This document shows positions 9,537-28,612 of a stretch of DNA of 64,000 nucleotides, one piece after another. How positions within the stretch are numbered: the first letter of the stretch is position 1; every line of letters starts with the position of its first letter. Both the position numbers and the translations under genes were made by a program. The DNA is from Alphaproteobacteria bacterium. GTDB lineage: Bacteria > Pseudomonadota > Alphaproteobacteria > UBA828. The DNA lies in assembly GCA_963667705.1 (NCBI GenBank), contig OY763937.1, positions 515,821 through 579,820 on the forward strand. Direction: 5' to 3'. The notes beneath the pieces were generated by a model that was not told the DNA's origin, ran no database searches, and saw only the letters and a list, made by a program, of their open reading frames with translations.

Positions 9537-9757
9537 CGACCGGGCCGCAGGCCCGGCCGGCGCGACCGCGCCGGCGCGCGAAGCGCGTAGCCAAGCGAGC
9601 GGAGCGAGCGTCCGTTGCCAGGGATTCCTAACCATTCCCTCACGTTCCATAAGTTACTGAAATAGAGTTGCATATGCAGTGCGCTTGGCCCTTGCGTTCC
9701 CAGCCGTTCCCTCCCATTATTGAAACAAGTGTGGGACGCAACGTGGGTGGAATATCC

Positions 9758-10981
9758 ATGGCATCGTACCGAACGGCCACCGCGAATGCCGCCAGGCCGG
9801 GACGCCTCAACGCCGCCTTCGTCCGAACTGTCAGCCGACCGGGCGTCTATGGCGATCAGCACGGCCTCAGGCTCAGAGTCTACAAGTCCAGAAAACGACA
9901 GTCGATCTCCAAGCAATGGATCTGGCGCGGGACCGTCAACGGAACACGCAGAGATATCGGCCTCGGCGGCTTCCCCTACGTCTCCCTGGCCGAAGCCCGG
10001 CAGACCGCCTTCGAATACCGCAAGACAGCCAGAGCCGGTCTTGATCCGGTCACTCTCAGGCGCGGGCCCGACGTGCCGACCTTCGCCCAAGCGGCGGAGA
10101 TCGTGATCGGCATCCACCGCGAAGGCTGGAAGGACGGCGGCAAGAGCGAGGCGCAATGGCGAGCGAGCCTCAGGGACTACGTCTTGCCGAGGCTGCGCCG
10201 CAAGGGTGTCGACGAGATCACCACCGCGGACGTGATGGCGGTGCTCGTCCCGCACTGGCATACCAAGACCGAGACCATGCGCCGCGTGCGCCAGCGTATC
10301 GGAGCGGTGATGAAATGGGCGGTGGCGCAGGGCCATCGGGACGACAACCCTGCTGGCGACGCCATCGCCGCCGCGCTGCCCAAGGGCGGCAGCGTTCGCC
10401 AGCATCAGCGCGCCCTGCCGTTCCGCGACGTCGGCGCCGCGGTCGCCAGGGTGAGGACATCGGATGCGTACCGGCCTGCGGTGCTCGCCTTCGAGTTTCT
10501 GGTGCTGACGGCGTGCCGGTCCGGCGAGGTCCGGTACGCGACCTGGGACGAGATCGACTTCGCAACTGCGACATGGACGATACCGGCGCAGCGGATGAAG
10601 GCGAGGCGCGAGCATCGAGTTCCGCTGTCTGCGCGTGCGCTGGCAATTCTGCGCGAGGCGCGCGATATGAAAGACGGCTCGGGCCTGGTCTTTCCGTCGC
10701 AGCGCGCCCGCGCGATCCACGGTGGCACGGTCTCCAAGCTCATGCGGGAGCTGGGGATCGACGCAGTGCCGCACGGCTTCCGCTCGTCGTTTCGGGACTG
10801 GGCGGCAGAATGCACCGATGTGCCTCGCGAGGTTTGCGAGCTCGCCCTTGCGCATGTGAACTCCGACCGGGTGGAGGCCGCCTATCGAAGGACCGATCTC
10901 TTCGACCGGCGCCGGGCGCTCATGGAGCAGTGGTCGGAATTCATCGTCAGTGGTAGCGAAAACTCCTGCATCACGCCGTGA
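9758..10981 (+). CDS. int: Tyrosine-type site-specific recombinase/integrase (phage P4-like family)
   Basis: C-terminal catalytic motifs (HGFRSSFRDWAAE, LAHVNSDRVEAAYRRTDL with a catalytic Tyr) and an N-terminal arm-binding region. ATG at 9758 preferred within the longer ORF. Confidence 0.9.
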   Translation: MASYRTATANAARPGRLNAAFVRTVSRPGVYGDQHGLRLRVYKSRKRQSISKQWIWRGTVNGTRRDIGLGGFPYVSLAEARQTAFEYRKTARAGLDPVTLRRGPDVPTFAQAAEIVIGIHREGWKDGGKSEAQWRASLRDYVLPRLRRKGVDEITTADVMAVLVPHWHTKTETMRRVRQRIGAVMKWAVAQGHRDDNPAGDAIAAALPKGGSVRQHQRALPFRDVGAAVARVRTSDAYRPAVLAFEFLVLTACRSGEVRYATWDEIDFATATWTIPAQRMKARREHRVPLSARALAILREARDMKDGSGLVFPSQRARAIHGGTVSKLMRELGIDAVPHGFRSSFRDWAAECTDVPREVCELALAHVNSDRVEAAYRRTDLFDRRRALMEQWSEFIVSGSENSCITP

Positions 10982-11213
10982 GGCACGACCAATTCGTAGC
11001 CCATCACTGCCTGACTTAGTGCTTCAGGACGCTTAGGACGGGACGCTGAAGATGCCGACGATTGGGCTGCACCGCCGATGGCTGCACCGACATAGGATCG
11101 GACCAACTGCTTGACCAAGCCGATGCGGGAGTTAACCTTGTCGCCCCGAACGTAAGTTCAACGCCGCTGCAGAGGGGAACTCGCGTGCAGCTCAACCGAG
11201 GAACGGGACGATC

Positions 11214-11456
11214 ATGGCGCGACATGTGAAGATCGGTGAGGCCAAGACCCACTTGTCAGCGCTGCTGGCGGAGGTTGAAGCGGGCGAGGACCTGGTGATC
11301 TGCCGGGGGGCAACGCCGGTCGCCCATGTGACGCGGGTCGCACGGGAGGGCGAGCATGCCAAGCTCTCTGCGACGCTCCGGCGCGAGCGAGCGAAGCAAA
11401 GGGCAGTGACGACCTCCGAGATACTGTCCTGGCGCCATGAGGGACACGCGCGCTGA
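11214..11456 (+). CDS. Type II antitoxin (Phd/YefM or VapB-like)
   Basis: 80 aa. The N-terminal motif GEAKTHLSALLAEVEAGEDLVI is typical of Phd/YefM-fold antitoxins. The stop overlaps the start of the next gene (ATGA). Confidence 0.75.
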   Translation: MARHVKIGEAKTHLSALLAEVEAGEDLVICRGATPVAHVTRVAREGEHAKLSATLRRERAKQRAVTTSEILSWRHEGHAR

Positions 11457-11857
11457 TGGCGTTCGTTCCCGACGCTTCGGTGGCGGCCGCCTGGGTGCTG
11501 CCGGACGAGGAGGCAGCGCTGGCCGACATCGCACTCGACCGGTTGGGTGGGGAGGCGGTGAAGGTTCCGGGCGTATTTTGGCACGAGCTGCGCAATCTTC
11601 TGCTGTCGGCCGAACGCCGGGGCCGGATCGACGAGAACCATGCCGCCGCCTCGATGACGCGGCTGCGCCGCCTTCCCATTGCCAGTGCCGACGACGCGGA
11701 CGACCACGTTGTGATGGCATTGGCGCGTGTTCACCGCCTGACCGCCTACGATGCAAGCTATCTGGCGCTCGCGATTCGCGAGGGTTGTGCGTTGGCCAGC
11801 CTGGACCGGCGCCTCAATGAAGCAGCGGCGGCCGAAGGTGTCGCTCCATTCGCTTGA
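11456..11857 (+). CDS. vapC: PIN-domain toxin VapC
   Basis: 133 aa. A conserved PIN acidic residue sits in FVPDASV, with later acidic residues. The gene is translationally coupled to the upstream antitoxin. Confidence 0.75.
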   Translation: MAFVPDASVAAAWVLPDEEAALADIALDRLGGEAVKVPGVFWHELRNLLLSAERRGRIDENHAAASMTRLRRLPIASADDADDHVVMALARVHRLTAYDASYLALAIREGCALASLDRRLNEAAAAEGVAPFA

Positions 11858-12007
11858 GGCCATGCCGCAAGTTTGGCAATCGATCCGGCTCAAGGAGGCC
11901 CAACGATTTCAACCCAGCAGGTGAAGCGCGCCGAGCCCCTGCCCCATCAAGCGATATCGTGGTTCAGGAATTGACCACCCTGGACGGCGGTAGCAGCGGA
12001 GAGCCGC

Positions 12008-14430
12008 ATGGCGCAATCGGATACCTGTGCCGGGGAGGCCGCCCGGATACGCGAGCGCCTGGCACTGCTCGACGCCGAGCGGGCGGATCTTGAGAAGCGG
12101 CTTGCGGAGCTCGCGCGCTCGACTTCGATGCAGCTGGCGAATGCGAGCCCCGGCGGTACGGTGACCAACCGTTCGCCCACGAACGACAAGATCGCGCTCT
12201 TCCGGACGCTCTTCGGCGGCCGGGAGGACGTGTATCCCCGGCGCTGGGAGAACGCTGCGAAGGGCAAAGCCGGGTACGCACCGGTCTGCGCCAACGAGTG
12301 GAAGCCCGACGTGTGCCACAAGCCCCGGGTGCGCTGCGGCGTCTGCCCAAACCAGGCCTTTGAGCCGGTCACCGAGGAAGCCATCGAAAGACATCTTCGC
12401 GGGCACCACACGATGGGCGTCTATCCGATGCTGGCCGACGATACCTGCCGGTTTCTCGCAGCCGACTTCGACAAGGAGACCTGGCACCGTGACGCGGGCG
12501 CTTATCTCGACGCCTGCCGCGCGAAGGGGATCCCGGCGGCGCTCGAGCGCTCGCGCTCGGGCAACGGCGCGCATGTGTGGTTCTTCTTCGAAGACCCCGT
12601 ACCGGCATCGCTGGCTCGCCGCCTCGGCGCCCACCTCCTGACCGAAGCGATGGAACGCAATCCCGATATCGGCTTCCGCTCCTACGACCGGTTCTTCCCG
12701 AGCCAGGACACGGTGCCCCAGGGAGGATTCGGCAACCTCATCGCGCTCCCCCTTCAAGGCGGCCCGAGGGAGAACGGCCACAGCGTGTTTCTCGACGCAG
12801 ACTTCGAGCCGTGGCCGGACCAGTGGGCGTTCCTCTCCGGGCTCCGGCGCCTTACTGGGCGGAGGCCGGAGTGATCGTGGATGAGGCCGGCCGGCTGGGC
12901 CGCGTCGTGGGGCTTCGCCTGCCGCTCGACGACGACGATGAAGAGCCCTGGACCGCGCCGCCGTCGAGGCGAAAACCGCTGCCTGCGATCGCCGGAGTGT
13001 TGCCCGAGCGCATCGCTGCCGTGCTGGCAGATCAGATCTACATTCCGCGTGAAGGCCTGCCGCCAGGGCTGGTCAACCGGCTCGTGCGACTCGCGGCTTT
13101 CCAGAATCCTGCCTTCTACGCCGCGCAAGCAATGCGTCGCTCGACCTTCGGCACGCCCCGCGTCGTCGCCTGCGCCGAGCTTCTCTCGCATCACATTGCA
13201 CTTCCGCGCGGTTGCCTGGCGGCGATGGAGCACCTGCTCGAAGAGCTCGGCATCCGTCTCGATCTGCAAGACAAGCGTTTCGCGGGCCGTCCGGTCGAGA
13301 CGACATTCCTCGGTGAATTGACGCTGGAGCAGGCGGCGGCAGCCAATGCCCTGCTCCAGCATGACACCGGCGTGCTGGCGGCGACCACCGCGTTCGGCAA
13401 GACAGTCGTCGCGGCATCGCTCCTGGCGACCCGCAGGGAAAACACCCTCGTCATGGTTCACCGCCGTCAACTCATGGACCAGTGGATCGCACGGCTCGGG
13501 GCGTTCCTCGATCTGCCGGCTTCAGCGATCGGGCAGATCGGCGGCGGCAAGCGCAAGCCCACGGGCGTCGTCGACGTTGCCGTCATCCAGAGTCTCGTGC
13601 GCGGTGACGAGGTGGACGACATCGTCGCCGACTACGGCCATCTCATCGTCGACGAGTGCCACCATCTCTCCGCGGTCAGCTTCGAGAAGGTGGCACGCCG
13701 AGCGAAGAGCAAGTTCGTGCTGGGGCTGTCGGCGACCGTGACACGCCAGGACGGTCACCATCCGATCGTGTTCATGCAATGCGGCCCGGTGCGGTTCCGG
13801 GCGAGCGCGAAGTCCCTCGCCCGTCAGCGCCCCTTCACGCATCGGACGTTGCTGCGCCCGACGGCGTTCCGCCTTCCCGACGACATCGCGGAGGAGCGCC
13901 CGCCGATCCAGCAGATCTATGCGGCGCTTGCCGAGGACGAGGCCCGCAACGATCTGATCTTCGACGACGTGCTGAACGCGCTCGAGGCGGGCCGCTCACC
14001 GCTCGTCCTCACCGCGCGCAAGGAACACGCCCGCCGGCTTGCCGAACGGCTCGACCGGTTCGCGCGGAACGTGCTGTTCCTTCGCGGCGGCATGGGGGCG
14101 AAGCAGCGCCGCTCGGTCATGCAGCGCCTCGAAGAGATCCCCGATGCCGAGGAGCGGATCCTGGTCGCGACGGGGCGCTATATCGGCGAGGGGTTCGACG
14201 ATGCGCGCCTCGATACGCTGTTCCTCGCGATGCCGGTCGCGTGGCGGGGGACGCTCGCGCAGTATGTTGGGCGGCTGCATCGGCTACATCCGTCCAAGTG
14301 CGAGGTTCTGGTTTACGACTACGTCGACGAGGCGGTTCCCGCACTGCGACGAATGACGCAGAAGCGCGTCCAGGGCTACCGCAGCCTCGGCTATTCGGTC
14401 GAACGGCCCGGCGGTGAAAGCACTGTGTGA
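12008..14430 (+). pseudogene. Frameshifted gene for an archaeo-eukaryotic primase (AEP/PrimPol-like) N-terminal domain fused to an SF2 DEAD/DEAH-box helicase. It resembles the conflict-system AEP-helicase proteins that annotation pipelines label 'TOTE conflict system' (name recalled from memory, not checked).
   Basis: Frame 2 (12008-12874) encodes the AEP-like region (CxxC...C..C, NGAHVWFFF). Frame 1 continues from about 12860 with Walker A (TAFGKT), DECHH (motif II) and a helicase C-terminal domain. The two reading frames overlap and switch near 12845-12870. Confidence 0.6.
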
Positions 14431-14769
14431 ACAGTCCGGCGATGGTCACCGCGCGACCTGTTACCTGGAGTACCCGCACTTGCCGTTCGGTCCACGCCGC
14501 CGCACCGGCATAGTCCCGTTTCATCCACCGATTTTCCGGCACCGAAACCGGGGGTTCAGGCTGTTCGAGTATGAACCGTGACACGTCCAATTCCAACTGC
14601 GCCAACGCGCTCCTTGAGCGTCAGCCAATCGGTCGCCATGATCGAACACTGCCGTGGCGCCGCAGCCGCGACCGCCGGCCTGGAGCGGCTTTGGCGATGG
14701 CCTTGAGACGGGCGCTGGGGCGGCAAGGGCGGCCGGCGGCCTCGATAGCCGCAGCACAGTGAGGGCAAC

Positions 14770-15264
14770 ATGAGCACCTGGAGCGATCCGGCGCGCTGCG
14801 CGGTGACGCTGGCCGAAATACTGGAGGCCCTCGACCGAGCGATCCTGACCGATGACGCTGCCTTGCGGCACCGCCTCGCGCACGTCGAAACGCTGCGGGT
14901 TGGCGTCTACTGCGGCGACCGTGACCGCTACTCAAACGAGGCCGATGAGCGGTTGGAAGAGATCGGCAACGTGCTCTACGAGGCCGGCGATTTGACCTTG
15001 CGCATGCGCGGAAAAGTGGCCACAGCCCGAGAGGTACGCGGCCGGCTGGCGCGCGCCCGAGAAGCGGTAGCCGAAGAGGCGGATATTGACCGCGCGGCCA
15101 ACGCCAAGCGCGTGGCGGCCAAGCACGTGGCGGCAGACCGCGCGACGCTCACGGAAGCCGACCGCAAGGCGCGGAGGGCCGAGGTGGCCCGCGTGGCGGC
15201 GCTCGCACCGGACGAGGCGCGGGTCGAGGCGCTCCTGGTCGAGCTCCAGGGAAGGACGACTTGA
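14770..15264 (+). CDS. Hypothetical protein (Ala/Arg-rich, predicted helical)
   Basis: ORF with protein-like composition in the gap between the helicase gene and the PKS operon. Confidence 0.4.
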   Translation: MSTWSDPARCAVTLAEILEALDRAILTDDAALRHRLAHVETLRVGVYCGDRDRYSNEADERLEEIGNVLYEAGDLTLRMRGKVATAREVRGRLARAREAVAEEADIDRAANAKRVAAKHVAADRATLTEADRKARRAEVARVAALAPDEARVEALLVELQGRTT

Positions 15265-15380
15265 TACGGCGGGACTCCGACGAGCGCGCGATCACCCCAT
15301 GGCAGGCGCTCATGTCCGTATCGCCCCCCGGAACCGGAACGGTGAGCGGCGGCGTCCACTCCTATCGATACGCCATGGGG

Positions 15381-17876
15381 CTACGCGATCTTCCGTGAGG
15401 CAACAAACTCCCGATACGGCGCAAATGCGGCTGCGACCTGTTCGGTGGTGAGGCCGAAGTCCTTCAGGCTATATCGATGCGGTGGCTCCCGGCGACGTTG
15501 TTCCGCCTGCCGTTCGAGCCAGCTCTCCATATCGGCCGCAGCCGCCGGCTCGAGCCGCCAGTCGAACCGTTCGTAAATTTCGTTGACCACCGCCATCGGG
15601 TTCTCGACCAGGTCGCGGTAGCTCACATCGACCCAGCGCGCCTCGAGCTCGGGGCACGACGCCCGGAACCGCATCGCCTCGTTGAGCATGCCGCTCATCA
15701 GGTCCAGCTGCTCGGCACCGGTGTCGTGCCGCGGGCGCGGTTCGATGGAGACGGAGCGTATCCGGTCCACAAGGCTGTTCCACGATCCCATAAACTGCGT
15801 GGGCTCGCGATGGGTCTGGATAAAAACCGCATCCGGGTAGTTCGCGAGCAGCGCCTCCAGCTCCATGAGATGGAAGGGCATCTTGAGCAGCCAGCCCTTC
15901 CCGGCATCGGGCTCGCGCTGCCGGCGCTGCCAGGTGAAGTGCCGCATGACGCGACGGTGATAGGCGTAGGCATTGTCCGAACCGGTGGCGGCAAGCCAGC
16001 TGCGGTAGTCCGGCACGTAGTACGCGACGGCGTTGACCCAGGATGCGAAGGACTGCCTGAGGATCGGGAAATCCTCCTCGGGCTCGTCGATATCGATGCG
16101 GTGCATTTCGGCGAACTGATCCACGACCCGAATGGAGTCCAGCAACTCCTTCACGTGAGCCCGGCGCGGGTCGCCGGCGGTGCGCGCGACGGAGCCGTAC
16201 TCTCCGCTTGCCAGAACCGGCTCCGACAGCTCGTAGCGACGCAGCGTCCAGAATCTTCCGTCGCGCGCCATCATCCGGTGCAGAAACGTGGTGCCGGTTC
16301 GATTGATCCCCACGATGAACACCGGACGCACGATCTCCTCGCGCTCGATCTCGGGGTGCTGCTGCCACTCGCGGGCGAGCGCCGCATTGTTGCGAAGCTG
16401 GCGGTTCAGTTCGTAGACGAGGTGCGGGCGTCTCTCCTTCAGCAATCCGGCCTGTGGTGCGCTGAGTACCTCCACAAGGCGCTGGAATCCCGTACGCATC
16501 CACGCGGGAAACGTGTGGTCGAAGGGAACGCCGACGCGTTCGGCGTAACCCTCGGCCTGCGCCATCAGGCGGTCGAGGTCCAGGCGGGCTTTCGGCACCG
16601 GATAGGGCCACCCGTCGCCCTGTCGCCGTATCCAGTCGTAGGAGCGCGAATGCCGGAGGAGCAATGCCGGCCACTGGACAGGAAAGGGACAGTCCTCGCG
16701 AATGGCGCGATCGTCGACCGGAGCAACGCCGCCGGCCTCGCCGTCCGCGAACCAGTACGGTGCGAAGTAATCGAGAAGCGTCCACAGCCCGTGCAGCGGA
16801 GAGCGCTCTCCAAGCGCCTCGCAGGCACGCTTGAACGTCTCGTATGGAACTTCGCGCAAGTAGAGGCCGAAATCGGCCGGCCCGAAATCGTCGTGCGGAG
16901 GTTGCGGATCGCAGCAATGGTAGATTGTGAACCGCCGCTCGGGATTCGCCGAGATTGCGGCGCATATCTCGGTGAGCGTATCCACGGGCTCGGCACAGCT
17001 CTGTATGGAGAAGCCGGCGGGAGCCATTTCGACCTGTATCGCCGCGAGGTAGATGGAGAGCGCGACGGCGCTCGCGTTCGTGAATCCCGTGCTGGACATC
17101 CCTGTCTGCGGCAGGCGAAAAATCGCCACCGGCAGTCCGGCCGCGTTCGCGAAGAGCAGGACCTGTTCGGAAACGAGCTTGCTCCACGGGTATCCAAGGA
17201 AGCCGAGCGGCAACACCCTCTTCATGGTTGCCAGATCGGGCTGCATGTGGTGCTCGATACGACTGCGACTGAATTCGTTCGAGAAATTGCAGAAGTACTC
17301 AGGGAAAACGGCCATCGTGGAAGCGTAGAAGACGTGCTTGAAACGCGTTCGCAGGCACAACGCGAGCACATTGCGAAGACTGGTCGCGTTCACGTCGCGT
17401 ATCGAGGAGTAGGACGACACGAGGGAGAGGTCGGCGGCAAGGTGGTAGACCGCGTCGATGCGTCGGCACAGATCGTCGAATTCCGCATTGCTCAAGCCGA
17501 ATCGAGGCGCGCAAATATCCCCGGCCACGACCCGGATGCGCGGCCCGAATGCGTCGTCCCAGATCTCGGCGTGCTCCAGGGCGGCGCGTATCCGCGCGAA
17601 GCCATGCTCGACGCCGTCCGTGCGGACCAAGCAGTGCACCACGAGGCTGTCGTCTTGCCGCAGGAGATCGCGCAACAGAAAGCGGCCCACGAACCCGGTG
17701 GCGCCGGTCAGCAGGACTTCCCGGAAGTCGTTCGCCGATACCGGCTCGGCCGGCGATTCCTCCCCGATGGTGGAATGAACGAATCTGCGCAAACCGTCGA
17801 GGTCGCGCTGGCACTGCATCGGCAAGCGACCGGCGAGGGAGGGCACCGCGCAGGAAGCGGGGAGCGTTTCAGCCAT
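15381..17876 (-). CDS. Bifunctional thioester reductase (SDR-type R domain) and sulfotransferase fusion protein
   Basis: N-terminal LLTGATGFVGRFLL NAD(P)-binding motif and YPWSK (YxxxK), matching NRPS/PKS terminal reductase domains. C-terminal VFIVGINRTGTTFLHRMM is a PAPS-binding 5'-PSB loop of the sulfotransferase family. Confidence 0.8.
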   Translation of the reverse strand: MAETLPASCAVPSLAGRLPMQCQRDLDGLRRFVHSTIGEESPAEPVSANDFREVLLTGATGFVGRFLLRDLLRQDDSLVVHCLVRTDGVEHGFARIRAALEHAEIWDDAFGPRIRVVAGDICAPRFGLSNAEFDDLCRRIDAVYHLAADLSLVSSYSSIRDVNATSLRNVLALCLRTRFKHVFYASTMAVFPEYFCNFSNEFSRSRIEHHMQPDLATMKRVLPLGFLGYPWSKLVSEQVLLFANAAGLPVAIFRLPQTGMSSTGFTNASAVALSIYLAAIQVEMAPAGFSIQSCAEPVDTLTEICAAISANPERRFTIYHCCDPQPPHDDFGPADFGLYLREVPYETFKRACEALGERSPLHGLWTLLDYFAPYWFADGEAGGVAPVDDRAIREDCPFPVQWPALLLRHSRSYDWIRRQGDGWPYPVPKARLDLDRLMAQAEGYAERVGVPFDHTFPAWMRTGFQRLVEVLSAPQAGLLKERRPHLVYELNRQLRNNAALAREWQQHPEIEREEIVRPVFIVGINRTGTTFLHRMMARDGRFWTLRRYELSEPVLASGEYGSVARTAGDPRRAHVKELLDSIRVVDQFAEMHRIDIDEPEEDFPILRQSFASWVNAVAYYVPDYRSWLAATGSDNAYAYHRRVMRHFTWQRRQREPDAGKGWLLKMPFHLMELEALLANYPDAVFIQTHREPTQFMGSWNSLVDRIRSVSIEPRPRHDTGAEQLDLMSGMLNEAMRFRASCPELEARWVDVSYRDLVENPMAVVNEIYERFDWRLEPAAAADMESWLERQAEQRRREPPHRYSLKDFGLTTEQVAAAFAPYREFVASRKIA

Positions 17877-18136: not shown

Positions 18137-21100
18137 TCAGGACTCCGACGTCATTTCGTTTCGGCTCGCACAGAGCACCGGCGGAAAGTGATCTTCCAGG
18201 ACGCTTGCGAATTCCGACGGCCTTCGGCGCCCGCGGAGCCGACCGGAGAGAGGCGCGTCCGCGCTCTCCACTGCATCGGTCTCGCCTTCCACTTCCTCGG
18301 GCTGTTCCGCTCTGTGGACGATCGCATGCGCCAAGGACTGGCAGGTGGCGGTGGTCATCAGCTCCAGAGCGCTGACCTGGAAGTTGAACTGATTCTGAAG
18401 AAACGCCACGAGCTCGGCAACGGAGATCGAATTGAATCCGAAACTCGCCAACGGCTCGTCCATGTCGCCTTCATCGTGGCCGCATAACTCGGCGACCTTC
18501 TCGGCGATCTGCGTCATCACGGTTTCGAGCGTGAGCCGGTCGTCGGAATGACCCTGGAACGCATCGTGGTTGCTCATCAGGCGGCCGATGCGCATGTAGT
18601 CCGCAGAGTCAACGGTCAACGGAACCCGCTTGAACAGCGCGGTCACAAGATGGTCGCTGTCGGACAGTCTGCGCAGCGCGTAGTCGAGGTTGGCGATTGC
18701 GAAGTGAACGCTCACCGGGGGCATGCCGGCCATCCTCAGCATGCGCAGTACATGGTGGTTACGCGAGGCCATGCCGACCTCGGCGACCGCCGCAATGTTG
18801 TAGGACAGCGCCGGCAAACCCTGCCCGCGGCGCCACGTTGCGAGGCCATCGAGGTAGGCGCTGGCGGCGCTGTAGTTGATCTGTCCGGGATTGCCGAAGG
18901 TCGAGGCAGTGGACGAGACCATGACGAAGAGGTCGAGCGGATGCCCGGCTGTCGCCCGGTGAAGATTCAGCGCGCCGGTCGCCTTGGGAGCGAACACCGT
19001 CTCCACGGATTCCCGCGACATGGTGTCGAGCAGACGGTCATCGAGTACACCGGCGAGGTGAAAGACGCCCTTGAGCGGGCGGCGCAGGCTGGCGACGCAG
19101 CGCTCCACGTCCGCCGCAATCGCGACATCGCCCGCGACGATGTCGATCTCGCATTCATGGGCCATGTATTGCAGCGAGCTCGATTCGCGCAACCAGTCGG
19201 CGCTACGGCGACGCTCAGGGTCCCGATCCATCAACGTGAGATGGCGGGCTCCGACTGAGACGAGATAGGGCAGCAGGCACAGACCGAATCCGCCGAGGCC
19301 GCCGCTCACGAGGTAGGTCGCATCGGGGTCGAGCAGCGGGCGCCGGTCGACGATCGGGAACTGCGGATGAACACCGGCCGGCGGGGACCTGAGCACCAGC
19401 TTCCCCTGATGCTTGCCGCTGGTCATCAGGCGCAGGGCCTTCGCGTAGTCCTCGTAGTCGTAGACGGTGATCGGCAACGGCGGCAGTTCGCCCCGTTCGA
19501 GCAGGTCGAGACAGGTCTCGGAGAGTCGGCGCAGGAGCCAGGGGTCGTCGACCATCAGGCGATCCACGTCGACCGCGGCGAAGCGCAGGTTCTTGCGGAA
19601 GACGTAGAGGCCCAGCGGATTATCGGAGTAGATGTCGACCTTTCCGATCTCGCAGTGCCAACCGCCCGGACGCAAGGCCTCTAGACACAGCGCGAGGTGA
19701 CGGCCGGCGAGGGAGTTCAGGACCACGTCGACACCTTCGCCGCCTGTCGCTCCCATCAACTGGTCGTACCAGCTCTCGCTGTGCGAATCGAACGCCGCGC
19801 TCGCACCGAGCTCGAGAAGCCGATCACGCTTGGCCTCGCTTCCCGCCGTTGCGTAGATCGTCGCCCCTGCGCGCCTGGCAAGCGCGATGGCGGCCTGTCC
19901 CACTCCGCCCATGGCGGAGTGAATGAGGACGCTCTGACCTTCGGACAGCCGAGCCAGGTGAACGAGGGCATAGTACGCGGTGAGGTAGACCGAGAGCGAA
20001 GACGCGGCTTGCTCCATGTCGAGGCGGGCAGGCTTGGAAAACACGAGGGGGGCGTCGACGACTGCCCGATTGGCGATACATCCGCCCTGGGTGAAGATCA
20101 CCTCGTCGCCGGCCAGGCAACGGTCCACCCCCTCGCCGACCCGGCGCACGACTCCACTGGCTTCCATGCCGACCTCCAGCCCCAGCGCGGAGCGTTCGTA
20201 GGCCGCCGAGGGCAGCAGTCCCAAGGTCGCCATGACATCGCGGAAGTTGAGCGCCGCCGCCTTCACGTCGACCTCCACCATCCCCGGCCCGAGCGCCGCG
20301 GGTTCGTACGTCTTCATCTGCAACCCGCCGATCTGCCCCGGGTTGTCCAGGCACAGGCGGTAGGTGGTTTCGTCGCCGGCGGGGACGCAGGGAGCATGGT
20401 CGCGAATGCTTTCAATGCGGGGTACCCACAGGCGGCCCCCCCGCACCGCGACCTCCCGATCGCGCAGATCGCAGCGAGCGAGCGAGGCCAGGGTCTTCAG
20501 GTCGTCGTCGGCACCGAGATCCACCAGACGGAAGTCGATTCCGGCATCCTCGCCCACCTCGATCGCCATGCTGCGAACCGCGCCCCACAGGCCGCACCCG
20601 CGCGGGTCTTGAACGTCAAAGGCGGCGCCCCGAGTCACGACGGTGACGCGGCACCGGGACTCCGCATGCTCGGTCCGGTACGACACCAGCGCCCGGACGA
20701 GGGCGACAAAGGCCGACACCACCCCCTCACCGGTAGGGTCCTGCGGATCGCGACCGCAGAAGAAGTCGACGGCCTGCAAGTCCGCCACCCGAGGCCATTC
20801 GTCGATGTCGTGGACCTCGCCGCAGACGAGAGGCTCAAAGGCAATCGGGTACACCTCCGGATCATCGAGCAGGGACGGCCAGTCCTGCGCCGGGCTCTGC
20901 GGCTCGCCCACCACCCAACGGGGTGTCGGAACAGCCGTCGCATTCAGGGGTTTCGCCCACGACTGCGGGGCCTGAAGCAGGGTGCTGCGCGCGGCGGCGC
21001 GAACGACGGCCCAACCGGCGCCGGGTTCGAGCACGTCGCCTTCGGAGTGAGAGACCAGTGCCAGGCCTCCGGCCACCAGCAAGCGTCTCCAGAACTCCCA

Positions 21101-24100
21101 GTCCCCGGGGGCGAATGCGGCCGCATCGCGATGCAGAAGGAGCACCTCCACCGCAGCCGGGCGCAGCAGGCCCTCATCGAGTGCAGTCGCCTGGCACTCG
21201 GCCGCGTCGATGCATTCGAATCGCAGAGCGGCGTCGGCTGCGTGAAACGCCTCGTAGCTCTTGCCGGCGCTATCTTCATCGTGGCTGACGAGCCAATACT
21301 CGCTCTGCCGTCCGGCACCCGACAGGTGCCCGACGCATTGCTCGAGCATGGTCTGCTCGGGCTCCCTGCACCCTGCGAACTCCAAGACGCGGCACGCGCG
21401 GTCCGCTCCGTCAACGGGTTGTTCGAGAGCGGCGAGCAACTCCGCAGGGTCGATGTCGCCGGCGGACAGCCGGTCGGCGAACGCCCGGCCGTTCGGCAGG
21501 AACTTGGGCTGCCAGACGATCCGGTGCTTGCTGTGAGGCAGGTCGCCCCTTTTCAGGTTCGAGTCGAAATGGATGTATTTCTGGACGTAGGCAACGAGGG
21601 CTCCATTGGATTGGTCGTAGAAGCTGATGCTGCCCGACAGCCGCTCGCCCTCGGACGGGTTGAATTGACCCTTGTCGTCGATATCCACGGCTCGATCGGG
21701 AGGATCCCTCAGAAGACAGGTCAGCCGCGGTCCCGACGCCACACCGAGAAACGTCATGTGCTCGATTCGCCGCGGGATGCACAGGTGATCGGGAGTAAGC
21801 AACATGTTGTAGAGAAACGCCTGAAATGCGCCGTCGATCAGCGGGGGGTAGAAGACGTACCCCTCATCTCTGCCGTCGGCCCACAGGGTTTCGTCGATTT
21901 CGAGATCGGCCAGGAAGGACCGGGTCGCCTCGTCGCGCTGAATCTGCCGGATGTTTCTGCAGTGGGGGCCGTAGCCGTACGTATCGCCCAGAACCGCCTC
22001 GAAACGTTCGTAGAGTTCCTCTCCGGAGGCATGCTTGAGGGGCGCGTAGGCGGAGCGGTCGATGTCTCCGAGCCGGCCTGGAGCGTCCAGCGCCGGCGGG
22101 TCGCTCAACACGCGCACCTTGCCCCGACAGTGCGACTCGCTCCTGGTGTCCTCGCCGTAGGGCCGGGTGGAAATGACGAAGGTGTATTCGGACGGGGAAT
22201 TGGCGACCGGATGCAGCGCCGTCTGCAGGCGCACCGGCGTTCTCGGGACCGGGCAAGGCTGAAGAAACTCGATCACGTCGAAGTGCACCGGCGCCCCGCC
22301 GAACGCCTCGAGAATCATCTCGATGTAGCCCGTCGCCGGCATGATCGCCGCGTGATGGACCACGTGGTCGGCGGCCCACGGAAAGGCCCGGTCAGAGAAA
22401 CGCGCCTCGAACATCAGGTGATCGCACGGGATCCGGTGACCGACGAGCGGGCCGTGAGAGTACTCGGCTCCCTGATTGTGGAACTCGTCGTCCGCCATGG
22501 TATCCGCCTTCTTCTCCTCGTCCTTCGGATGTCCGGGCAGCAGGTGAGGAAGGGGCTCCGGGCGCGGGTACCGGGAGGCAAAGTCGAGCGGCACGCCGGC
22601 TCTGAACAATGCCCCCAGCGATTCGAGAAAACCGATGCGCGTATCGCTGTCGCGCATGAATGTCGCGATCGAGGTCGGGGCGGACACACCGTCGGCCAAG
22701 CATTGTGCGATGACGGGCTGCAGCGCGCAGTGCGGCGCAAGCTCGAGCACCGCCTGCGGCCGGTGGTCGCGCTTGACGGCGTCCATCGCGGCGGCAAAGC
22801 GCACGGGCTGGCGGATGTTCGACCACCAGTACGCGCTGTCGAGGCGCTCGGTGAGGCTGCCGGTCACGGATGAAACGAAGGGAACGTCGAGGTCGAAGGC
22901 CAGCTCGTCGAGGAAGGACAGCGCCGCCGCCACGTCCTCCCGGATGGCGTCCATCGCCCGGGAGTGAAAGGCGATGTTTCCGGGAACCAGTCGATTCTGC
23001 AGGTTGCGCCGTTCGAGCTCCTCGATGACAGGCTGCAAGGCGGTTTCGCTGCCGCAAATGACGGTATTGGCCGGCGCATTCTCGCAGGCGATCTCGACCT
23101 GGACCGGCCGGTTCGCATCGAGCCGGAAGGGAACTTCGAGGGTGTCCAGCAACTCCTCGACGCCGCAACGATCGAGGCCGATCGCCAGCATACGGCCCGA
23201 CCCGGCGGCGCGTTGCTGCAACGTGGCGCGATGGAAGACCAGTCGCGTCGCGTCTCCCAGGGAAAGCGCTCCGCAGGCGTAGGCTGCGGCCACCTCGCCG
23301 GAGCTGTGGCCGACCACGCAGTCCGGATAGACTCCCCAAGTCTTGAACAATTCGACGAGCGCGCACTGGAGCATGAAGATCACGGGCTGGGCCAGCTCGC
23401 ATTCGTCGAGCTCCGACTGCGGCGCGGAGAAGCAGGCCTCGCGTAGCGAGACGTCCGAATGTTCGCGCCAGTGCGCCTCGATCGCGTCGATGACGCGGCG
23501 AAATACGGGGTCGGCGCCATAGAGCGCGCGGCCGCAACCGGCCCACTGCGTGCCCTGTCCGGCGAACACCATCGTCAGCCGCGGCTCGCCCTCCTCTGCG
23601 GTCGCAACCGGGGCGCGTTCCTCCGCAACGGCATCGAGCCCCTCTTCGAGCTCCTCCAAGTCGCGCACCGCAAGCGCGGCGCGCGTGGAGAAATGGGTGC
23701 GACGGCGGCTGAGATTGCCGGCCAGCGTATAGAGATCCACAGGCCGCCGGTCGAGCATCTCGCGAAGCTGCCCCGCGCTTAGGGCGAGCGACTTCGCATT
23801 GCGCGCCGAAAGGGGAATGACGTAGCCGGCCTCCGGAGCCAGGGCGACCGACCAGATGCGGGGACGCGCCGGGCGGTACTCGCGCACCACACAGTGCCCG
23901 TTGGCGCCGCCGAAGCCGAAGGAGTTGATGCCGACGACGACGGGATGTTCGGGAAAGGGCTCGACCTCCGTCTGCACCCGCATCGGGCAGCGGTCGAAAT
24001 CGATTTCGGGATTCGGCACCAGGTAGTTCTTCGATGTCGGCGCGAAGGTGCGGCGCTGCATCATCAGGACGACCTTCAGCATCGCGCAATGGAATGCGGC

Positions 24101-25192
24101 CGCTTCCATATGCCCGACGTTGCTCTTGACGCTCGAGACCCGAAGCGGCACCTCGCGATCGAACCCGCCGAACGCCTCCGCGATGGCATTGCCTTCGATC
24201 CGGTCTCCCACCACGGTTCCCGTCGCGTGGGCTTCGACGTAGTCGAACTCCCGGGCAGTGCGCCCGGCACGGGCGGCAGCGGTGCGCATCAGCTCGACCT
24301 GCGCGTGACGGGTCGGCGCGACGATGTTGCGACCGGGGGGCAGGCCCACGGCGTCGTCCGCCGCGCCGGCCGCGTTGACCGCGCTCGCCTCGATCACGAC
24401 ATGAATGGGATCTCCATCGCGCTCCGCCGCGGCCAGGGGCTTCAGCGCGAAGATGAATGCGCCTTCGGAGCGCATGTAGCCGTCGGCCTGGGCGTCGAAG
24501 GAGTGGCACTTACCTTCCGGGCTGATGACCCCCATGAGGTTGAAGCTGCTGCTCAGCCTTGCGCTGCCCAGGTAGGTAACAGATCCGACGAGCGCCTGAT
24601 CGCAGTCGCCGCACTGAAGGGCGTTCATGGCCGAGTGCAGCGCGCTCAGACCGGCGGAACATGCCGTGCAGTACGCGATCGAGGACCCCATGAGGTTGAA
24701 GTGGTACGAGATCCGGTTGGCCAGCATGGCCACGCTGATGCCGATGACGGAGTACTCGCTGACGCCATGCTGAGGCCGCCAGCTCGACACGGCCGGAACT
24801 TGTGCCCCGATGAACACTCCGGTGGAGCTATTGCGCAGTGCATGGAAGTCCCAGCCGGCATGCTCGATCGTCTCCCACGCGCAGTTCAGCAGCATCCTGA
24901 CCTGCGGTTCCGTCTTCATCATTTCGTTGTGGGACATTCCGAACAGTGTGCGGTCGAAGAGCAGCTCGTTGCTGTCGCGGATCAGTCCTTCCCAGGGACT
25001 GGCAAGGCGCCCCGGGCCAGAAAACTCCCCGATCGGCAGGTGGCCTTTGCCGTAGCGATCGGTGATCGGCTCCTGGACGATCTCGCGCTCGGCGAGCAGG
25101 CGCCAGAAATCGGAGTCCGAGCGGATGCCACCGGGCAGGCGGTGGCCGTATCCCACGATGGCGACGTCGCTTTCTCTCCTCTGCGACGTCAT
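18137..25192 (-). CDS. Type I polyketide synthase, fully reducing single module (KS-AT-DH-psiKR/linker-ER-KR-ACP). FAS/mycocerosic-acid-synthase-like. No thioesterase.
   Basis: KS active site TACSAGL with HGTGT and NVGH motifs. AT motif GHSSGE with IAFHS, which predicts malonyl specificity. DH HxxxAxxxxP-like motif. ER motif LIHSAMGGVGQAAIALA. KR Rossmann motif YLVSGGLGGFG. ACP motif GFNSIS. Confidence 0.95.
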   Translation of the reverse strand: MTSQRRESDVAIVGYGHRLPGGIRSDSDFWRLLAEREIVQEPITDRYGKGHLPIGEFSGPGRLASPWEGLIRDSNELLFDRTLFGMSHNEMMKTEPQVRMLLNCAWETIEHAGWDFHALRNSSTGVFIGAQVPAVSSWRPQHGVSEYSVIGISVAMLANRISYHFNLMGSSIAYCTACSAGLSALHSAMNALQCGDCDQALVGSVTYLGSARLSSSFNLMGVISPEGKCHSFDAQADGYMRSEGAFIFALKPLAAAERDGDPIHVVIEASAVNAAGAADDAVGLPPGRNIVAPTRHAQVELMRTAAARAGRTAREFDYVEAHATGTVVGDRIEGNAIAEAFGGFDREVPLRVSSVKSNVGHMEAAAFHCAMLKVVLMMQRRTFAPTSKNYLVPNPEIDFDRCPMRVQTEVEPFPEHPVVVGINSFGFGGANGHCVVREYRPARPRIWSVALAPEAGYVIPLSARNAKSLALSAGQLREMLDRRPVDLYTLAGNLSRRRTHFSTRAALAVRDLEELEEGLDAVAEERAPVATAEEGEPRLTMVFAGQGTQWAGCGRALYGADPVFRRVIDAIEAHWREHSDVSLREACFSAPQSELDECELAQPVIFMLQCALVELFKTWGVYPDCVVGHSSGEVAAAYACGALSLGDATRLVFHRATLQQRAAGSGRMLAIGLDRCGVEELLDTLEVPFRLDANRPVQVEIACENAPANTVICGSETALQPVIEELERRNLQNRLVPGNIAFHSRAMDAIREDVAAALSFLDELAFDLDVPFVSSVTGSLTERLDSAYWWSNIRQPVRFAAAMDAVKRDHRPQAVLELAPHCALQPVIAQCLADGVSAPTSIATFMRDSDTRIGFLESLGALFRAGVPLDFASRYPRPEPLPHLLPGHPKDEEKKADTMADDEFHNQGAEYSHGPLVGHRIPCDHLMFEARFSDRAFPWAADHVVHHAAIMPATGYIEMILEAFGGAPVHFDVIEFLQPCPVPRTPVRLQTALHPVANSPSEYTFVISTRPYGEDTRSESHCRGKVRVLSDPPALDAPGRLGDIDRSAYAPLKHASGEELYERFEAVLGDTYGYGPHCRNIRQIQRDEATRSFLADLEIDETLWADGRDEGYVFYPPLIDGAFQAFLYNMLLTPDHLCIPRRIEHMTFLGVASGPRLTCLLRDPPDRAVDIDDKGQFNPSEGERLSGSISFYDQSNGALVAYVQKYIHFDSNLKRGDLPHSKHRIVWQPKFLPNGRAFADRLSAGDIDPAELLAALEQPVDGADRACRVLEFAGCREPEQTMLEQCVGHLSGAGRQSEYWLVSHDEDSAGKSYEAFHAADAALRFECIDAAECQATALDEGLLRPAAVEVLLLHRDAAAFAPGDWEFWRRLLVAGGLALVSHSEGDVLEPGAGWAVVRAAARSTLLQAPQSWAKPLNATAVPTPRWVVGEPQSPAQDWPSLLDDPEVYPIAFEPLVCGEVHDIDEWPRVADLQAVDFFCGRDPQDPTGEGVVSAFVALVRALVSYRTEHAESRCRVTVVTRGAAFDVQDPRGCGLWGAVRSMAIEVGEDAGIDFRLVDLGADDDLKTLASLARCDLRDREVAVRGGRLWVPRIESIRDHAPCVPAGDETTYRLCLDNPGQIGGLQMKTYEPAALGPGMVEVDVKAAALNFRDVMATLGLLPSAAYERSALGLEVGMEASGVVRRVGEGVDRCLAGDEVIFTQGGCIANRAVVDAPLVFSKPARLDMEQAASSLSVYLTAYYALVHLARLSEGQSVLIHSAMGGVGQAAIALARRAGATIYATAGSEAKRDRLLELGASAAFDSHSESWYDQLMGATGGEGVDVVLNSLAGRHLALCLEALRPGGWHCEIGKVDIYSDNPLGLYVFRKNLRFAAVDVDRLMVDDPWLLRRLSETCLDLLERGELPPLPITVYDYEDYAKALRLMTSGKHQGKLVLRSPPAGVHPQFPIVDRRPLLDPDATYLVSGGLGGFGLCLLPYLVSVGARHLTLMDRDPERRRSADWLRESSSLQYMAHECEIDIVAGDVAIAADVERCVASLRRPLKGVFHLAGVLDDRLLDTMSRESVETVFAPKATGALNLHRATAGHPLDLFVMVSSTASTFGNPGQINYSAASAYLDGLATWRRGQGLPALSYNIAAVAEVGMASRNHHVLRMLRMAGMPPVSVHFAIANLDYALRRLSDSDHLVTALFKRVPLTVDSADYMRIGRLMSNHDAFQGHSDDRLTLETVMTQIAEKVAELCGHDEGDMDEPLASFGFNSISVAELVAFLQNQFNFQVSALELMTTATCQSLAHAIVHRAEQPEEVEGETDAVESADAPLSGRLRGRRRPSEFASVLEDHFPPVLCASRNEMTSES

Positions 25193-25444: not shown

Positions 25445-28400
25445 TTAGTCGTGACGACCCGCGGCGATCATCACCAGCGCCGGCAGCACGAACAGGATCG
25501 AAAGCGTGGAGAACACAAGTCCACCCACCATGCTGACGACGAAGGGCACGAACGCGATCAGCTCATCGCCGCGCTCATAGAGCAGGGGCGAGATCCCCAG
25601 CACCGTGGTGAGGGTGGTCAGGAACACCGGCCGGAATCGCTGCCGTGTCGCCGCGGCTGCGGCGGCGATGGCGGGGATCATCGCGTTGTCTCGGCGGATC
25701 GTGTTGTAGCGATCCAGCAACACGAGAGCGTCGTTCACGACCACGCCGCCGACGGCAATCATGCCGAAGATCGACATGGTGGTCAGGTCCCAGCCCAGGA
25801 TCCAGTGGCTCACGATCGCGCCTGCGAAGGCGATCGGAATGCCCACGACCGCAATCACCGGCTTCCAGTAGCTGCGCAGGAACGCCGCGATGAGGGCGTA
25901 GATCGCGATCAAGACGATGGGGACGAGAACCGCCAGCGTCTCGAGCATGTCGCCCTCGTCCCGCGCACCGGCTTCGACCTCGACAGTGAGGCCGGGATAT
26001 GCCGCCAGAAGGTCGGGAATGATCTGGTCGCGAACCTCCCGCCGCGCCTGAATCGGCGTGATCACCGCAGTGTCCGCCCGCCCGTTGACGCGCGCCGCCC
26101 GCTTGCCGTCGATCCGCGTCAGCGTCGCCGGCTCGCGCTTCTCGGTGATCGTCGCCACCAGCGAAAGCGGGATTTCGCCGCCACCCGGCCGATGGATTCG
26201 TTCGCTGGCCAGCTCGCTCAGGCTGCGCCGCCGCTCGGCCGGATACCTGACCACCACGTTGATTTCCTCGCGGCCCCGCTGGATGCGCTGGACATCCGCG
26301 CCGTGGAAGCTGGAGCGTAGCTGCTTTCCAATGAGCGCCGGCGTCAGCCCGGCAGCCTTCCCTACCGGGGTCAGCTCGATCTCGAAGTGGCGTTTCCCCA
26401 GCGCCAGGTCGTCATGGATGCCGTAGATCCCCGGCACGGTCGCCATCCCCGAGCGCAACTCGGCGGCGGCGCTTCTCAACGTCTCCATGTCGTCGTGCTT
26501 GAGCGAATAGGAAACGCTCGGCCTAGCGGCAATGCGCCCGGAGCGGAATTCGACTCTCTCCAGGTTCGCCACGGGACCGACGGCCTTGCGCCATGCCCGC
26601 TCGACTTCGGGCGCGCTCGCGGAGCGATCCACCTGATCGCTGAGATGCAGCCGCACGGAGGCGAGATGGCTGCCGTTCAGCCGCTCTCTGACTTTCCACT
26701 CCGCATCGATGTTGCCGACGATCATGCTCACCGCGTCGACAGGAGTTCCCTCAAGCTCGTCGTTGAGGCCGTGCGCCGCCTCGGCGAAGCGATCGGCTGC
26801 GGCCAGCGTCTCCTCGAACGGCGCGCCCACCGGCAGATAGATGTCCGCCTGCACGTTGTCGGTGCTGCTCAGGTTCTCGTCGAAGAGGACGATGCGAACG
26901 GTGTCGGTTCCGAGGAGCAGGACGGCAGCGACCAGAACCAGGAGTGCGCCTATGATCGACAGCCAGACGTTGCGCACGGCCCATGAGGCCGCAGGCGCCA
27001 CGACCCGGTCGCGCACCTCGTCCAGCCATCCGCCGACCTGGCTCTGCACGTCGCTCAGCGGAGAGAGGCTCCAGCGCCTTTCGTGAGACAGGTGAGCCGG
27101 AAGGATGAAGAATGCCGCAACGAGGGAGACGAGCAGGACGAAGATCGCGACGTAGGGAAACACGTTCACGATCTGGAACGCGGGCGACGTGATGAAAAGG
27201 AACGGCAGGAATGCCAGAATCGTCGTGATGGCGCCGATGGTGAGCGGGCCTACCATGGCACGCGCGCCGGAAATCGCTGCATCCAGCGCGTTCTTCCCCT
27301 TCTCGCGTTCCGCCGCGATGCTTTCCCCCACCACCACGGAATCGTCCACGACGATGCCCACCAGGAGGAAGAAGCCGAAGATCGTGCCGAGATTGAGCGT
27401 GAGGTCCGCAGCATCGAAGAAGAGCAGCGAGCCTACGAAGGACAGGGGGATGCCGACGGTCATCCACAATGCGATGCGGAGCTCGAAGACCAGAACGAGG
27501 CTGATGAACACCAGGATCGTGCCGATCGCTCCGTTCTTCACGATCTCCAGCAGCCGGTCGAATACGGGGCTGGCATTGTCGTTCCAGATTCCGACGCTCA
27601 CGCCTTCGGGCGGGCTGTAGGCCGCAAGCAGATTCCTGATGTCCTCCGCCATATCGACGACCGACTGCTGCTCGGCCGCATCGACGCGAACGAGCACCGC
27701 CGGATGGCCGTTGACCTCGGTAACCACGTCCTCGTCGACGAACCCGTCGCGAATCGTGGCGATGTCGCCGAGCGTCACGATCGTGCCGCCGACCCGGGTG
27801 ATGAGCGGAATGTCCTCGAAATCCTGGCCGACGCTCTTCTTGGCGACGGTGTGAAGAACCACGCTGCCGGTGTCCGTCCGTATCTCGCCCATGGTGAGGT
27901 TGAGGGACGCCCCTCTTATCGTCCTGGACACTTCGGCGATGGAAAGGCTGTGGCGGCGCAGTTCCTCTTCGCTGAGCTCGATCGTGATTTCGCGGTCGCG
28001 GGTGCCTTTCAGAGACACCTGAGAGACGGACGGCAGCGCCATCACGCTGTCGCGCAGGTCTTCCGCCGCGCGGCGCAGTCCGTCCTCGGACAGACTGGAG
28101 GACACGACCGCCAGCGTCATGACTTCGTGGGAGACCGTGAGAAGCTGGACGTCCGGCTGTTCCGCCCGGACCGGCGGGAAGTTCTCGATGCCGTCGATCG
28201 CACTCTGAATATCGTTGAAGACGGCGTCGGAATCCGCGAAGGTCGCCATCTCCACCGTGACCTTGCCGAGGCTCTGGCTCGCGGTCGATACCACGCGCTC
28301 GACGCCCGGCAGCCCGACGACGGCCTCCTCGATGCGGCGGTTGATGTCCTCCTCGACCTCCTGAGGCGAAGCGCCCGGATACAGCACCGACACGGCGGCC

Positions 28401-28600: not shown

Positions 28601-28612
28601 GGCCCGGCTCCG

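Follow-up and report, generated by a model that had tools for sequence, protein, structure and literature searches.

A probably inactivated member of the IEE family of primase-helicases on a small integrative module of an alphaproteobacterium

What is a gene for a fused primase and helicase doing directly behind an integrase gene and a toxin–antitoxin (TA) pair? The question is raised by a 64,000-nucleotide (nt) stretch of an alphaproteobacterial genome (GenBank assembly GCA_963667705.1, contig OY763937.1, positions 515,821 to 579,820 of the forward strand), which we refer to as the window and number from its first letter. Between positions 12008 and 14430, it encodes an archaeo-eukaryotic primase (AEP) domain followed by a superfamily 2 (SF2) helicase domain. 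The original prediction, made from the sequence alone, read this gene and the TA pair as a defence-like module, the gene having the architecture of a "TOTE conflict system" AEP protein. Our analyses indicate that the gene probably belongs to the family of IEE, the insertion sequence (IS)-excision enhancer, in which a "Z1568-like" AEP is joined to an SF2 helicase, that it resides on a small integrative module and that the window copy is itself probably inactivated. It represents a known, characterized family and is ordinary cargo of mobile DNA, not a new anti-phage system.

Homology to the IS-excision enhancer of Escherichia coli

The coding region consists of two segments on the forward strand. 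The 5′ part (12008 to 12874, 288 aa) encodes a coiled-coil, a Cys cluster and the AEP (PrimPol) domain, and the 3′ part (12859 to 14430) encodes a linker and an XPB/RadD-like SF2 helicase-type ATPase. The AEP part matched Pfam PF22548, AEP-TOTE ("TOTE conflict system, Archaeo-Eukaryotic Primase domain"), with an E value of 2.9e-100 over profile positions 1 to 223 of 230, and the helicase part matched ResIII (9.4e-20), DEAD (5.3e-11) and Helicase_C (2.2e-5). The profile searches thus confirmed both ends of the predicted architecture, namely a PrimPol-like N terminus with the AEP fold and not some other fold, and a DEAD/DEAH-type SF2 helicase at the C terminus. The best relatives of solved structure in the Protein Data Bank (PDB) were XPBII (3e-19), the Marinitoga CAPP (7NQD/7NQE, 8e-13), RadD (2e-8) and UvsW, and CAPP, RadD and UvsW are relatives that have also been reported for IEE itself (PMC9943667; bioRxiv 10.1101/2023.06.07.543989).

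A literature search for fusions of an AEP with an SF2 helicase pointed to IEE of E. coli O157:H7 (ECs1305/Z1568; Kusumoto 2011, Calvo 2023), a protein of 786 aa with an N-terminal "Z1568-like" AEP (residues 1 to 290) and a C-terminal SF2 helicase-like domain (PMC9943667; bioRxiv 10.1101/2023.06.07.543989). In BLASTP, the window protein, with its reading frame repaired as described below, was 46% identical to IEE (62% positives, 669 bits) over 758 aa, and the alignment was colinear with IEE residues 47 to 786, the AEP part covering 47 to 280 and the helicase part 281 to 786. The E. coli comparator was a plasmid-borne copy (L084, 7863 to 10223, 786 aa), which we take as IEE because its DNA is 100% identical to that of the O157:H7 chromosomal gene and because its residues Y128, D142, D144, S171, Q175, G176, H178, D216 and K451 fit the numbering of Calvo et al.

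The catalytic residues are conserved in both domains. D153, D155, H189, D227 and Y139 of the window AEP correspond to D142, D144, H178, D216 and Y128 of IEE, such that motifs A (hDhD), B (sxH) and C (hD) are all kept, as is the Tyr that in the "Z1568-like" AEPs replaces the sugar-selecting His. In the RadD/UvsW-like ATPase, motifs I (AFGKT, with K465), II (DECHH, of the DExH type), III (SAT) and VI (QYVGRLHR, with the Arg finger) are likewise retained relative to IEE. The two genes also share a setting, each being a solitary gene on an integrase-bearing integrative element within a widely and horizontally spread family. They differ in that a 1-nt deletion breaks the gene in the window, whose product also has an N terminus about 10 residues longer, and in that it lies on an approximately 5-kb integrase–VapBC–IEE module in an alphaproteobacterial (Rhodospirillales-like) genome, in contrast to the large SpLE1-like element of E. 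coli.

CAPP of Marinitoga piezophila (7NQD/7NQE/7NQF), the nearest solved AEP by sequence, provides a second point of comparison. The window AEP matched both the NCBIfam profile PrimPol_Msp (1.9e-30, although at 106 bits against a cut-off of 200) and the PADLOC PrimPol profile (8.5e-89). Unlike CAPP, it has no cas genes nearby, and its fusion partner is an SF2 helicase.

A 1-nt deletion places the two domains in different reading frames

We compared the window with 80 related loci (L001 to L080), a further locus (L093) and 10 annotated plasmid regions. L001, from a Rhodospirillales metagenome-assembled genome (MAG), and L093 carry the module as well, so that with the window there are three copies of it. 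The AEP open reading frame (ORF) of the window runs in frame 2 and ends prematurely at TGA 12872 to 12874; the helicase part lies in frame 1, which is open from 12577 and shows homology from 12859. DNA alignment with eight intact relatives located the change of frame, on the forward strand, at a 1-nt deletion at 12857 to 12858, where every one of the eight has one base more (L001 reads ACT GAG GCG and the window ACT G-G GCG). Homologues are continuous across the junction ("LSGLRRLxxxExxxIVDEAGRxGRVVGLRLP"), and reusing one G at 12859 produced a repaired protein of 807 aa. Intact homologues are mostly of exactly this length, which is the modal one, with 80 to 96% identity at 100% coverage; the L093 protein is intact, 808 aa long and 95% identical. 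In 77 of the 80 related loci, the gene occupies a single frame. Thus, the single polypeptide that joins the AEP to the helicase in the IEE family is interrupted here by a lesion that belongs to the window copy and not to the family. Against L001 and L093, the deletion is the sole frame-breaking coding indel of the module, and both halves of the gene are ∼96% identical to L001 and free of other stops or indels. The one large gene of the original prediction is therefore borne out in its domains, the PrimPol-like N terminus and the DEAD/DEAH C terminus, but not as a single ORF from ∼12008 to 14430.

Two other explanations of the split were rejected. A family of short or truncated proteins was suggested when the 288-aa ORF used as query returned only proteins of at most 504 aa; this was an artefact of a search in which matches stop at 1.75 times the query length, and the repaired 807-aa query retrieved full-length 807-aa homologues. 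Programmed frameshifting was rejected as well, given the one-frame gene in 77 of 80 relatives and the lack of a slippery heptamer at the site when the sequence was read by eye.

Since end-joining by IEE needs both domains, the window copy is most likely inactive or crippled, with a frameshift that we infer to be biological and inactivating. We favor a real and recent lesion over an error in the consensus because the window holds very long intact ORFs and the site has no long homopolymer. The alternative is that the gene is in fact intact, the missing base being an assembly or consensus error, or that it functions as two cotranslated subunits, and we regard this as possible but clearly the less probable case. 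A single-base difference in a gene whose halves are otherwise uninterrupted could indeed be an assembly error, but the assembly does not seem prone to indels, as uninterrupted ORFs of 2351, 1443 and 1051 aa occur in the window, and the missing base lies outside any long homopolymer if L001 preserves the ancestral GAG. As to two subunits, GTG 12871 overlaps the upstream stop (GTGA) and stands 5 nt past a GGAGG at 12861 to 12865, a Shine-Dalgarno-like arrangement from which a restart would give a 519-aa protein; the halves could in this way be coexpressed and might still cooperate. The deposited annotation also appears to call both as coding sequences, of 288 aa (P0001) and 519 aa (P0254), although an exact search of assemblies for the 288-aa product gave no match. 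The GGAGG is missing from L001 at the same position, which argues against a conserved restart signal, and it is probably fortuitous. Moreover, the 77 single-frame relatives encode single chains, and the work on IEE reports that the isolated AEP domain polymerizes, yet that end-joining needs both domains.

A proposed activity for the intact homologue

IEE raises the transposase-dependent excision of IS3, IS1 and IS30 elements together with associated deletions; in vitro, its AEP domain is a Mn2+-dependent, error-prone polymerase and its helicase domain a DNA-dependent ATPase with no unwinding (PMC9943667; bioRxiv 10.1101/2023.06.07.543989). It is reported to join 3′ overhangs with at least 4 bp of microhomology and to require both domains to do so. 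By analogy, the helicase-like domain of an intact homologue would act as a DNA-dependent, nonunwinding ATPase that holds and synapses 3′ DNA ends, while its AEP domain would extend, in a Mn2+-dependent and error-prone manner, ends paired at 4 bp or more of microhomology. In cells, such an enzyme might turn the transposase-generated intermediates of copy-out-paste-in elements (IS3, IS1, IS30) into excisions and deletions, and the net effect would be an enzyme borne by one mobile element that acts on others. In the window copy, the deletion at 12857 leaves the AEP in an ORF of 288 aa and cuts it off from the helicase, which would be a 519-aa protein on a restart at GTG 12871.

Several points weigh against assigning IEE activity to this gene. 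An identity of 46% leaves room for functional divergence, and the IEE papers report no tested homologue outside E. coli. No transposase was recognized among the window ORFs scanned with Pfam, and the AEP domain carries the "conflict system" name in both Pfam and PGAP. The mechanism of IEE in vivo is itself disputed, between end-joining of transposase-made double-strand breaks and strand switching during copy-out (PMC9943667; bioRxiv 10.1101/2023.06.07.543989). We nevertheless infer an IEE-like activity for the intact protein from its relationship to the E. coli enzyme.

The "TOTE conflict system" name is a domain label

A quite unlikely alternative is that the protein is an anti-phage or anti-mobile genetic element (MGE) effector of TOTE type, forming with VapBC a defence islet that protects the element. 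The name has a real source: PF22548 is called the TOTE conflict system AEP domain, and RefSeq/PGAP gives the same name to the E. coli IEE gene, so the label in the original prediction is an actual Pfam and PGAP name. TOTE systems (Aravind, Iyer and Burroughs 2022), an acronym of TPR, OB, TBP and Effector, are defined, as a citing preprint gives it, by TPR-OB and TBP components plus an effector. The window AEP, a member of the Pfam family that takes its name from these systems (PF22548, E = 2.9e-100), is an effector domain of this kind.

The partners are absent. The ORFs directly around the gene encode a DUF6635 protein, an O-methyltransferase, the integrase, the TA pair, a 164-aa protein, a reductase-sulfotransferase and a polyketide synthase (PKS), and Pfam searches of these flanking ORFs found no TPR, cold-shock/OB (CSD) or TBP protein. 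For the 80 related loci, we also took the ORFs lying up to 6 kb from the gene, clustered them de novo and labelled the clusters with Pfam, and neither these neighbour clusters nor the 10 annotated plasmid regions contained a TPR-OB or TBP gene. In contrast to TOTE effectors, then, the gene is solitary, with neither partner gene in the window or beside any homologue examined. PADLOC (PADLOC-DB v2) matched the AEP strongly to its CRISPR-associated PrimPol profile, at the E value given above, and the helicase weakly to generic helicase profiles (PbeA, mREase_IV, Cas3c, HamB); it gave no system-specific match, and nothing for the integrase, TA or 164-aa proteins. With the partners absent and no system found by PADLOC, "TOTE conflict system" is here a Pfam/PGAP domain label and not evidence of a system.

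Context offers the defence reading some support. Islands beside integrases often hold defence genes, and some relatives have defence-like neighbours, such as SNF2 and HATPase_c_3 genes at L093 and HNH and SMC-like ATPase genes at L091. Against this, IEE, the sole member studied experimentally, acts on IS excision, the IEE papers report no phage phenotype, and the gene is broken in the window. A defence role for the gene is thus made unlikely by the missing TOTE partners, by the PADLOC result and by what the characterized relative does.

An unlikely role as replication initiator

Equally in need of weighing is a role as the replication primase-helicase of the integrative element, priming its excised circle in the manner of P4 alpha, PICI Pri-Rep or pRN1 ORF904. 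Those replicases resemble the window protein in being fusions of an AEP or primase with an NTPase encoded beside an integrase on integrative elements, and two reports describe AEP–helicase fusions as typical MGE replicases (PMC5862659, PMC11724360). In addition, the gene is a conserved core gene beside the integrase in the three module copies, and E. coli IEE is likewise found on an integrase-bearing element. The helicases of the known replicases are, however, hexameric and of SF3, D5 or DnaB type, and act with an origin, whereas the window enzyme has an XPB/RadD-like SF2 domain, not the SF3/SF4/D5 type usual for replicases, and its E. coli relative has DNA-dependent ATPase activity and does not unwind DNA.

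Distribution argues in the same direction. Homologues were found on 136 of 72,556 plasmids, and among the matches listed, the full-length ones were on plasmids that range in size from 78 kb to 1.4 Mb. Replicon typing, examined for pDSHI01, pMl1 and Paracoccus p1, gave each of the three a typed replicon of its own. Homologues are thus not plasmid replication initiators; had they always been, the original prediction's view of the gene would have fallen. No full-length homologue was found on phages. Taken with the 68 of 80 related loci that have, up to 6 kb from the gene, no integrase belonging to the main neighbour cluster, the within-genome paralogues that have only the gene itself in common, and a window gene that is frameshifted while the rest of its module is intact, these data make a replicase very unlikely.

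An approximately 5-kb core shared by three module copies

IEE-family membership, the reading we prefer, is accompanied by a defined genetic unit. Its left border (9540 to 9667, forward strand) begins with a GC-rich hairpin, CCGGGCC-GCA-GGCCCGG at 9540 to 9556, located 4 nt past the stop codon of the core O-methyltransferase gene (TAA 9534 to 9536), and continues into the upstream region of the integrase. Homology to the window begins at 9540 for L001 and at 9576 for L093. The L001 DNA is 93% identical to the window over 9540 to 15284 only, with unrelated flanks; L093 matches 9576 to 14578 and has a different gene upstream and different cargo downstream (the SNF2 and HATPase_c_3 genes). The DNA upstream of the module is unrelated among all three genomes. 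On the right, a conserved noncoding tail (14431 to 14578, no strand assigned) forms the end of the part common to the three copies, the homology of L093 stopping at 14578 and that of L001 running on to 15284. Because the three copies carry different flanks, we consider the integrase, the Phd-like antitoxin, the PIN toxin and the IEE homologue to make up, on sequence comparison, the core of ∼5 kb (9540 to 14578) of a family of integrative islands with variable cargo. No convincing att-like direct repeats were found at the borders of the module or island in comparisons with the entire window at k = 13 and over the 9.5-kb and 15.3-kb junctions at k = 9. The 148 nt of the tail, immediately past the helicase stop, are conserved in the three copies to the same degree as the coding sequence (∼92%); a 3′ untranslated region or terminator, an element end and a small antisense ORF are candidate roles for it.

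The integrase (9758 to 10981, forward strand) is a P4-type tyrosine recombinase with the Pfam domains Arm-DNA-bind_3, Phage_int_M and Phage_integrase and is 94.5% identical to the L001 copy. Its mechanical ORF (9668 to 10981) opens at TTG 9668, but translation more likely begins at ATG 9758 to give a protein of 407 aa, as the L093 copy is called at 407 aa and the indels relative to L093 lie upstream of 9758.

The TA genes follow on the same strand. An 80-aa Phd/YefM-like antitoxin (11214 to 11456) had weak matches to PF02604 (E = 1.4e-4; 22 bits against a curated cut-off of 29.8) and TIGR01552 (E = 0.0019; 17.5 against 20.8 bits), both below the curated Pfam/TIGRFAM thresholds. It overlaps by 1 nt a 133-aa, VapC-type PIN-domain toxin (11456 to 11857) that matched PF01850 well (E = 2.8e-13; 50.9 bits against a cut-off of 23.6) and has, by eye, acidic residues at the usual VapC positions (approximately D6, E44, D99 and D117). 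The antitoxin is 95% identical in L001 and also present in L093, and the toxin is 99% identical in L001. The ORF listing and profile searches therefore bore out the predicted content and order, an antitoxin-like gene and a PIN toxin gene after the integrase. The pair resembles VapBC type II systems with Phd/YefM antitoxins in that a mobile element carries a short putative antitoxin gene overlapping one for a PIN toxin. The 1-nt overlap, the length of 80 aa and the conservation of both genes in L001 and L093 suit such a pair, from which it differs in its weak antitoxin match. The original prediction that the module stabilizes its element survives for this part: in all three copies the two genes accompany those for the integrase and the AEP-helicase, which makes a stabilizing role plausible, and the pair most likely does stabilize the module.

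The proposed partner, the 164-aa hypothetical protein (14770 to 15264, forward strand), belongs to the variable cargo. It had no Pfam, NCBIfam or PADLOC match and only six matching protein clusters, all at 70% identity or more, among 5.8 billion proteins; it is conserved in one of the 80 related loci and lies outside the core shared with L093. It is thus a lineage-restricted ORFan, unrelated cargo beside the closest relatives only, and not a partner.

Distribution and genetic neighbourhoods of the homologues

The homologues in the 80 related loci are 60 to 96% identical at the protein level and come from Alpha-, Gamma- and Deltaproteobacteria, Gemmatimonadota, Acidobacteriota, Chloroflexota, Nitrospinota, Binatia and "Poriferihabitaceae", most sources being MAGs that are apparently sponge-associated. 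Identities this high across such phyla imply recent cross-phylum horizontal transfer.

The neighbour survey of the 80 loci, within 6 kb, revealed no widely conserved neighbour. The commonest were P4-type integrases (12 loci), SNF2 helicases (11), YhgA-like transposase_31 proteins (7) and HigB/HigA (6 to 7), followed by IS110 transposases (6), DUF4143 ATPases (5) and IS1380-type transposases (4). In the 10 plasmid regions, we found tyrosine-recombinase trios, transposases of the IS3, IS5, IS66, IS91 and IS630 types, HigBA or VapBC pairs and integrases, with TniQ on two plasmids. The homologues are thus solitary genes among integrases, IS transposases and TA pairs, and E. coli IEE too is part of an integrative element that has a tyrosine integrase; therefore, their context matches IEE biology. 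In several E. coli genomes, iee itself has been disrupted by insertion of an IS1203/IS629-like element of the IS3 family, one of the kinds on which IEE acts.

Some genomes and subsets of loci show arrangements of their own. The sequence OZ241969.1 (L050, L052, L056 and L057) has at least four copies of the gene at ∼91 to 92% nucleotide identity, mostly alike over the gene alone, from ∼50 to 500 nt upstream to the exact stop codon, with L056 and L057 sharing an additional flank of ∼10 kb. A transposon-like unit around the gene was considered and rejected, since paralogues within one genome are homologous over the gene only and end at its stop.

On Sphingobium pTB1 (L082, 3071 to 11340), the homologue closes an operon of overlapping genes, after those for a 226-aa protein, an rve/Mu-type transposase, TniB and TniQ, and on Sinorhizobium meliloti pMl1 (L083, 7691 to 11328), it directly follows TniQ, with VapBC and an integrase 2 kb downstream. 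As a general feature, a Tn7/Tn5053-like linkage to TniA/B/Q was rejected: it is absent from the 80 loci, and TniQ of the pTB1 type is on only four plasmids. On Rhodobacterales and Bradyrhizobium plasmids (L081, 11313 to 14748; L085, 8315 to 11213; L086, 9115 to 12244), the homologue adjoins a tyrosine-recombinase trio (RIT-like element), with DUF736 genes nearby on all three plasmids and DUF6878 genes on the two from Rhodobacterales.

In the 11 loci with SNF2 (for example, L053, 12676 to 16203), a large helicase gene of that family lies ∼300 nt downstream on the same strand; by eye, its product has an N-terminal CxC...CxH SWIM-like motif, for which there was no Pfam call. L093 has a shorter SNF2 gene (12541 to 13995) ∼2 kb downstream of its IEE homologue. 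The IEE homologue and SNF2 may form a two-gene arrangement in a subclade.

Implications

The most direct consequence is the correction of a misleading label: a gene annotated as "TOTE conflict system" belongs to the characterized IEE family, which is relevant wherever defence islands are mined by domain names. From the window copy itself, no phenotype is expected, because it is probably dead. The presence of multiple copies in one genome and of homologues in distant phyla is consistent with the conjecture that these enzymes police the IS load of such genomes, and their occasional linkage in operons with Tni genes for transposition is a hint that their part in transposon biology is wider.

A bolder, rather improbable proposal is that the IEE-family PrimPol-helicases are core life-cycle genes of mobile elements and not accidental cargo. 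It draws on the integrase–VapBC–IEE module fixed in three genomes, the pTB1 Tni operon, TniQ on pMl1 and the P4-like element of E. coli. Were it true, the donor site could, once the element or a competing IS has left, be resealed or re-primed by the enzyme, and nature would have provided, in the split allele of the window, a test of whether the AEP and helicase are required in cis.

The region surrounding the module

A region that runs to ∼53 kb and has a reduced G+C content at third codon positions (GC3) has the module at its left edge. The GC3 of ORFs is ∼0.93 up to 9536, ∼0.75 to 0.86 (about 0.80) from the integrase on, and ∼0.94 again after ∼54 kb. Genes in the low-GC3 region encode the reductase-sulfotransferase (15381 to 17876), the 2351-aa PKS (18137 to 25192), an RND efflux pump with HlyD (25445 to 29797), a B12-radical SAM enzyme (30060 to 31802), a YAcAr/SLOG protein (37825 to 38760), a single-stranded DNA-binding protein (SSB; 39801 to 40334) and a TraG/VirD4 coupling protein (42999 to 44975). 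As the SSB, the YAcAr/SLOG protein and the TraG-type coupling protein are encoded here too, the module may be the integration end of a larger island (9540 to ∼53000) resembling an integrative and conjugative or integrative and mobilizable element. The only tRNA gene of the window, tRNA-Gly (GCC; 59767 to 59841), is not obviously the site of the P4-type integrase, since it is located ∼6 kb past the apparent right end of this region.

Within the region, the stretch from 46000 to 53000 has a low GC content (0.53 to 0.60) and resembles a separate foreign insert; it holds TbpB-like beta-barrel ORFs at 47749 to 50106 (a weak match) and 50206 to 51111 (E = 3e-11), as well as a 532-aa ORF without a Pfam match. 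Farther downstream, an M20 peptidase gene (512 aa, 53294 to 54832) and a 691-aa ORF (54511 to 56586) on the same strand overlap by ∼320 nt, which reflects either an over-extended start or another frameshift.

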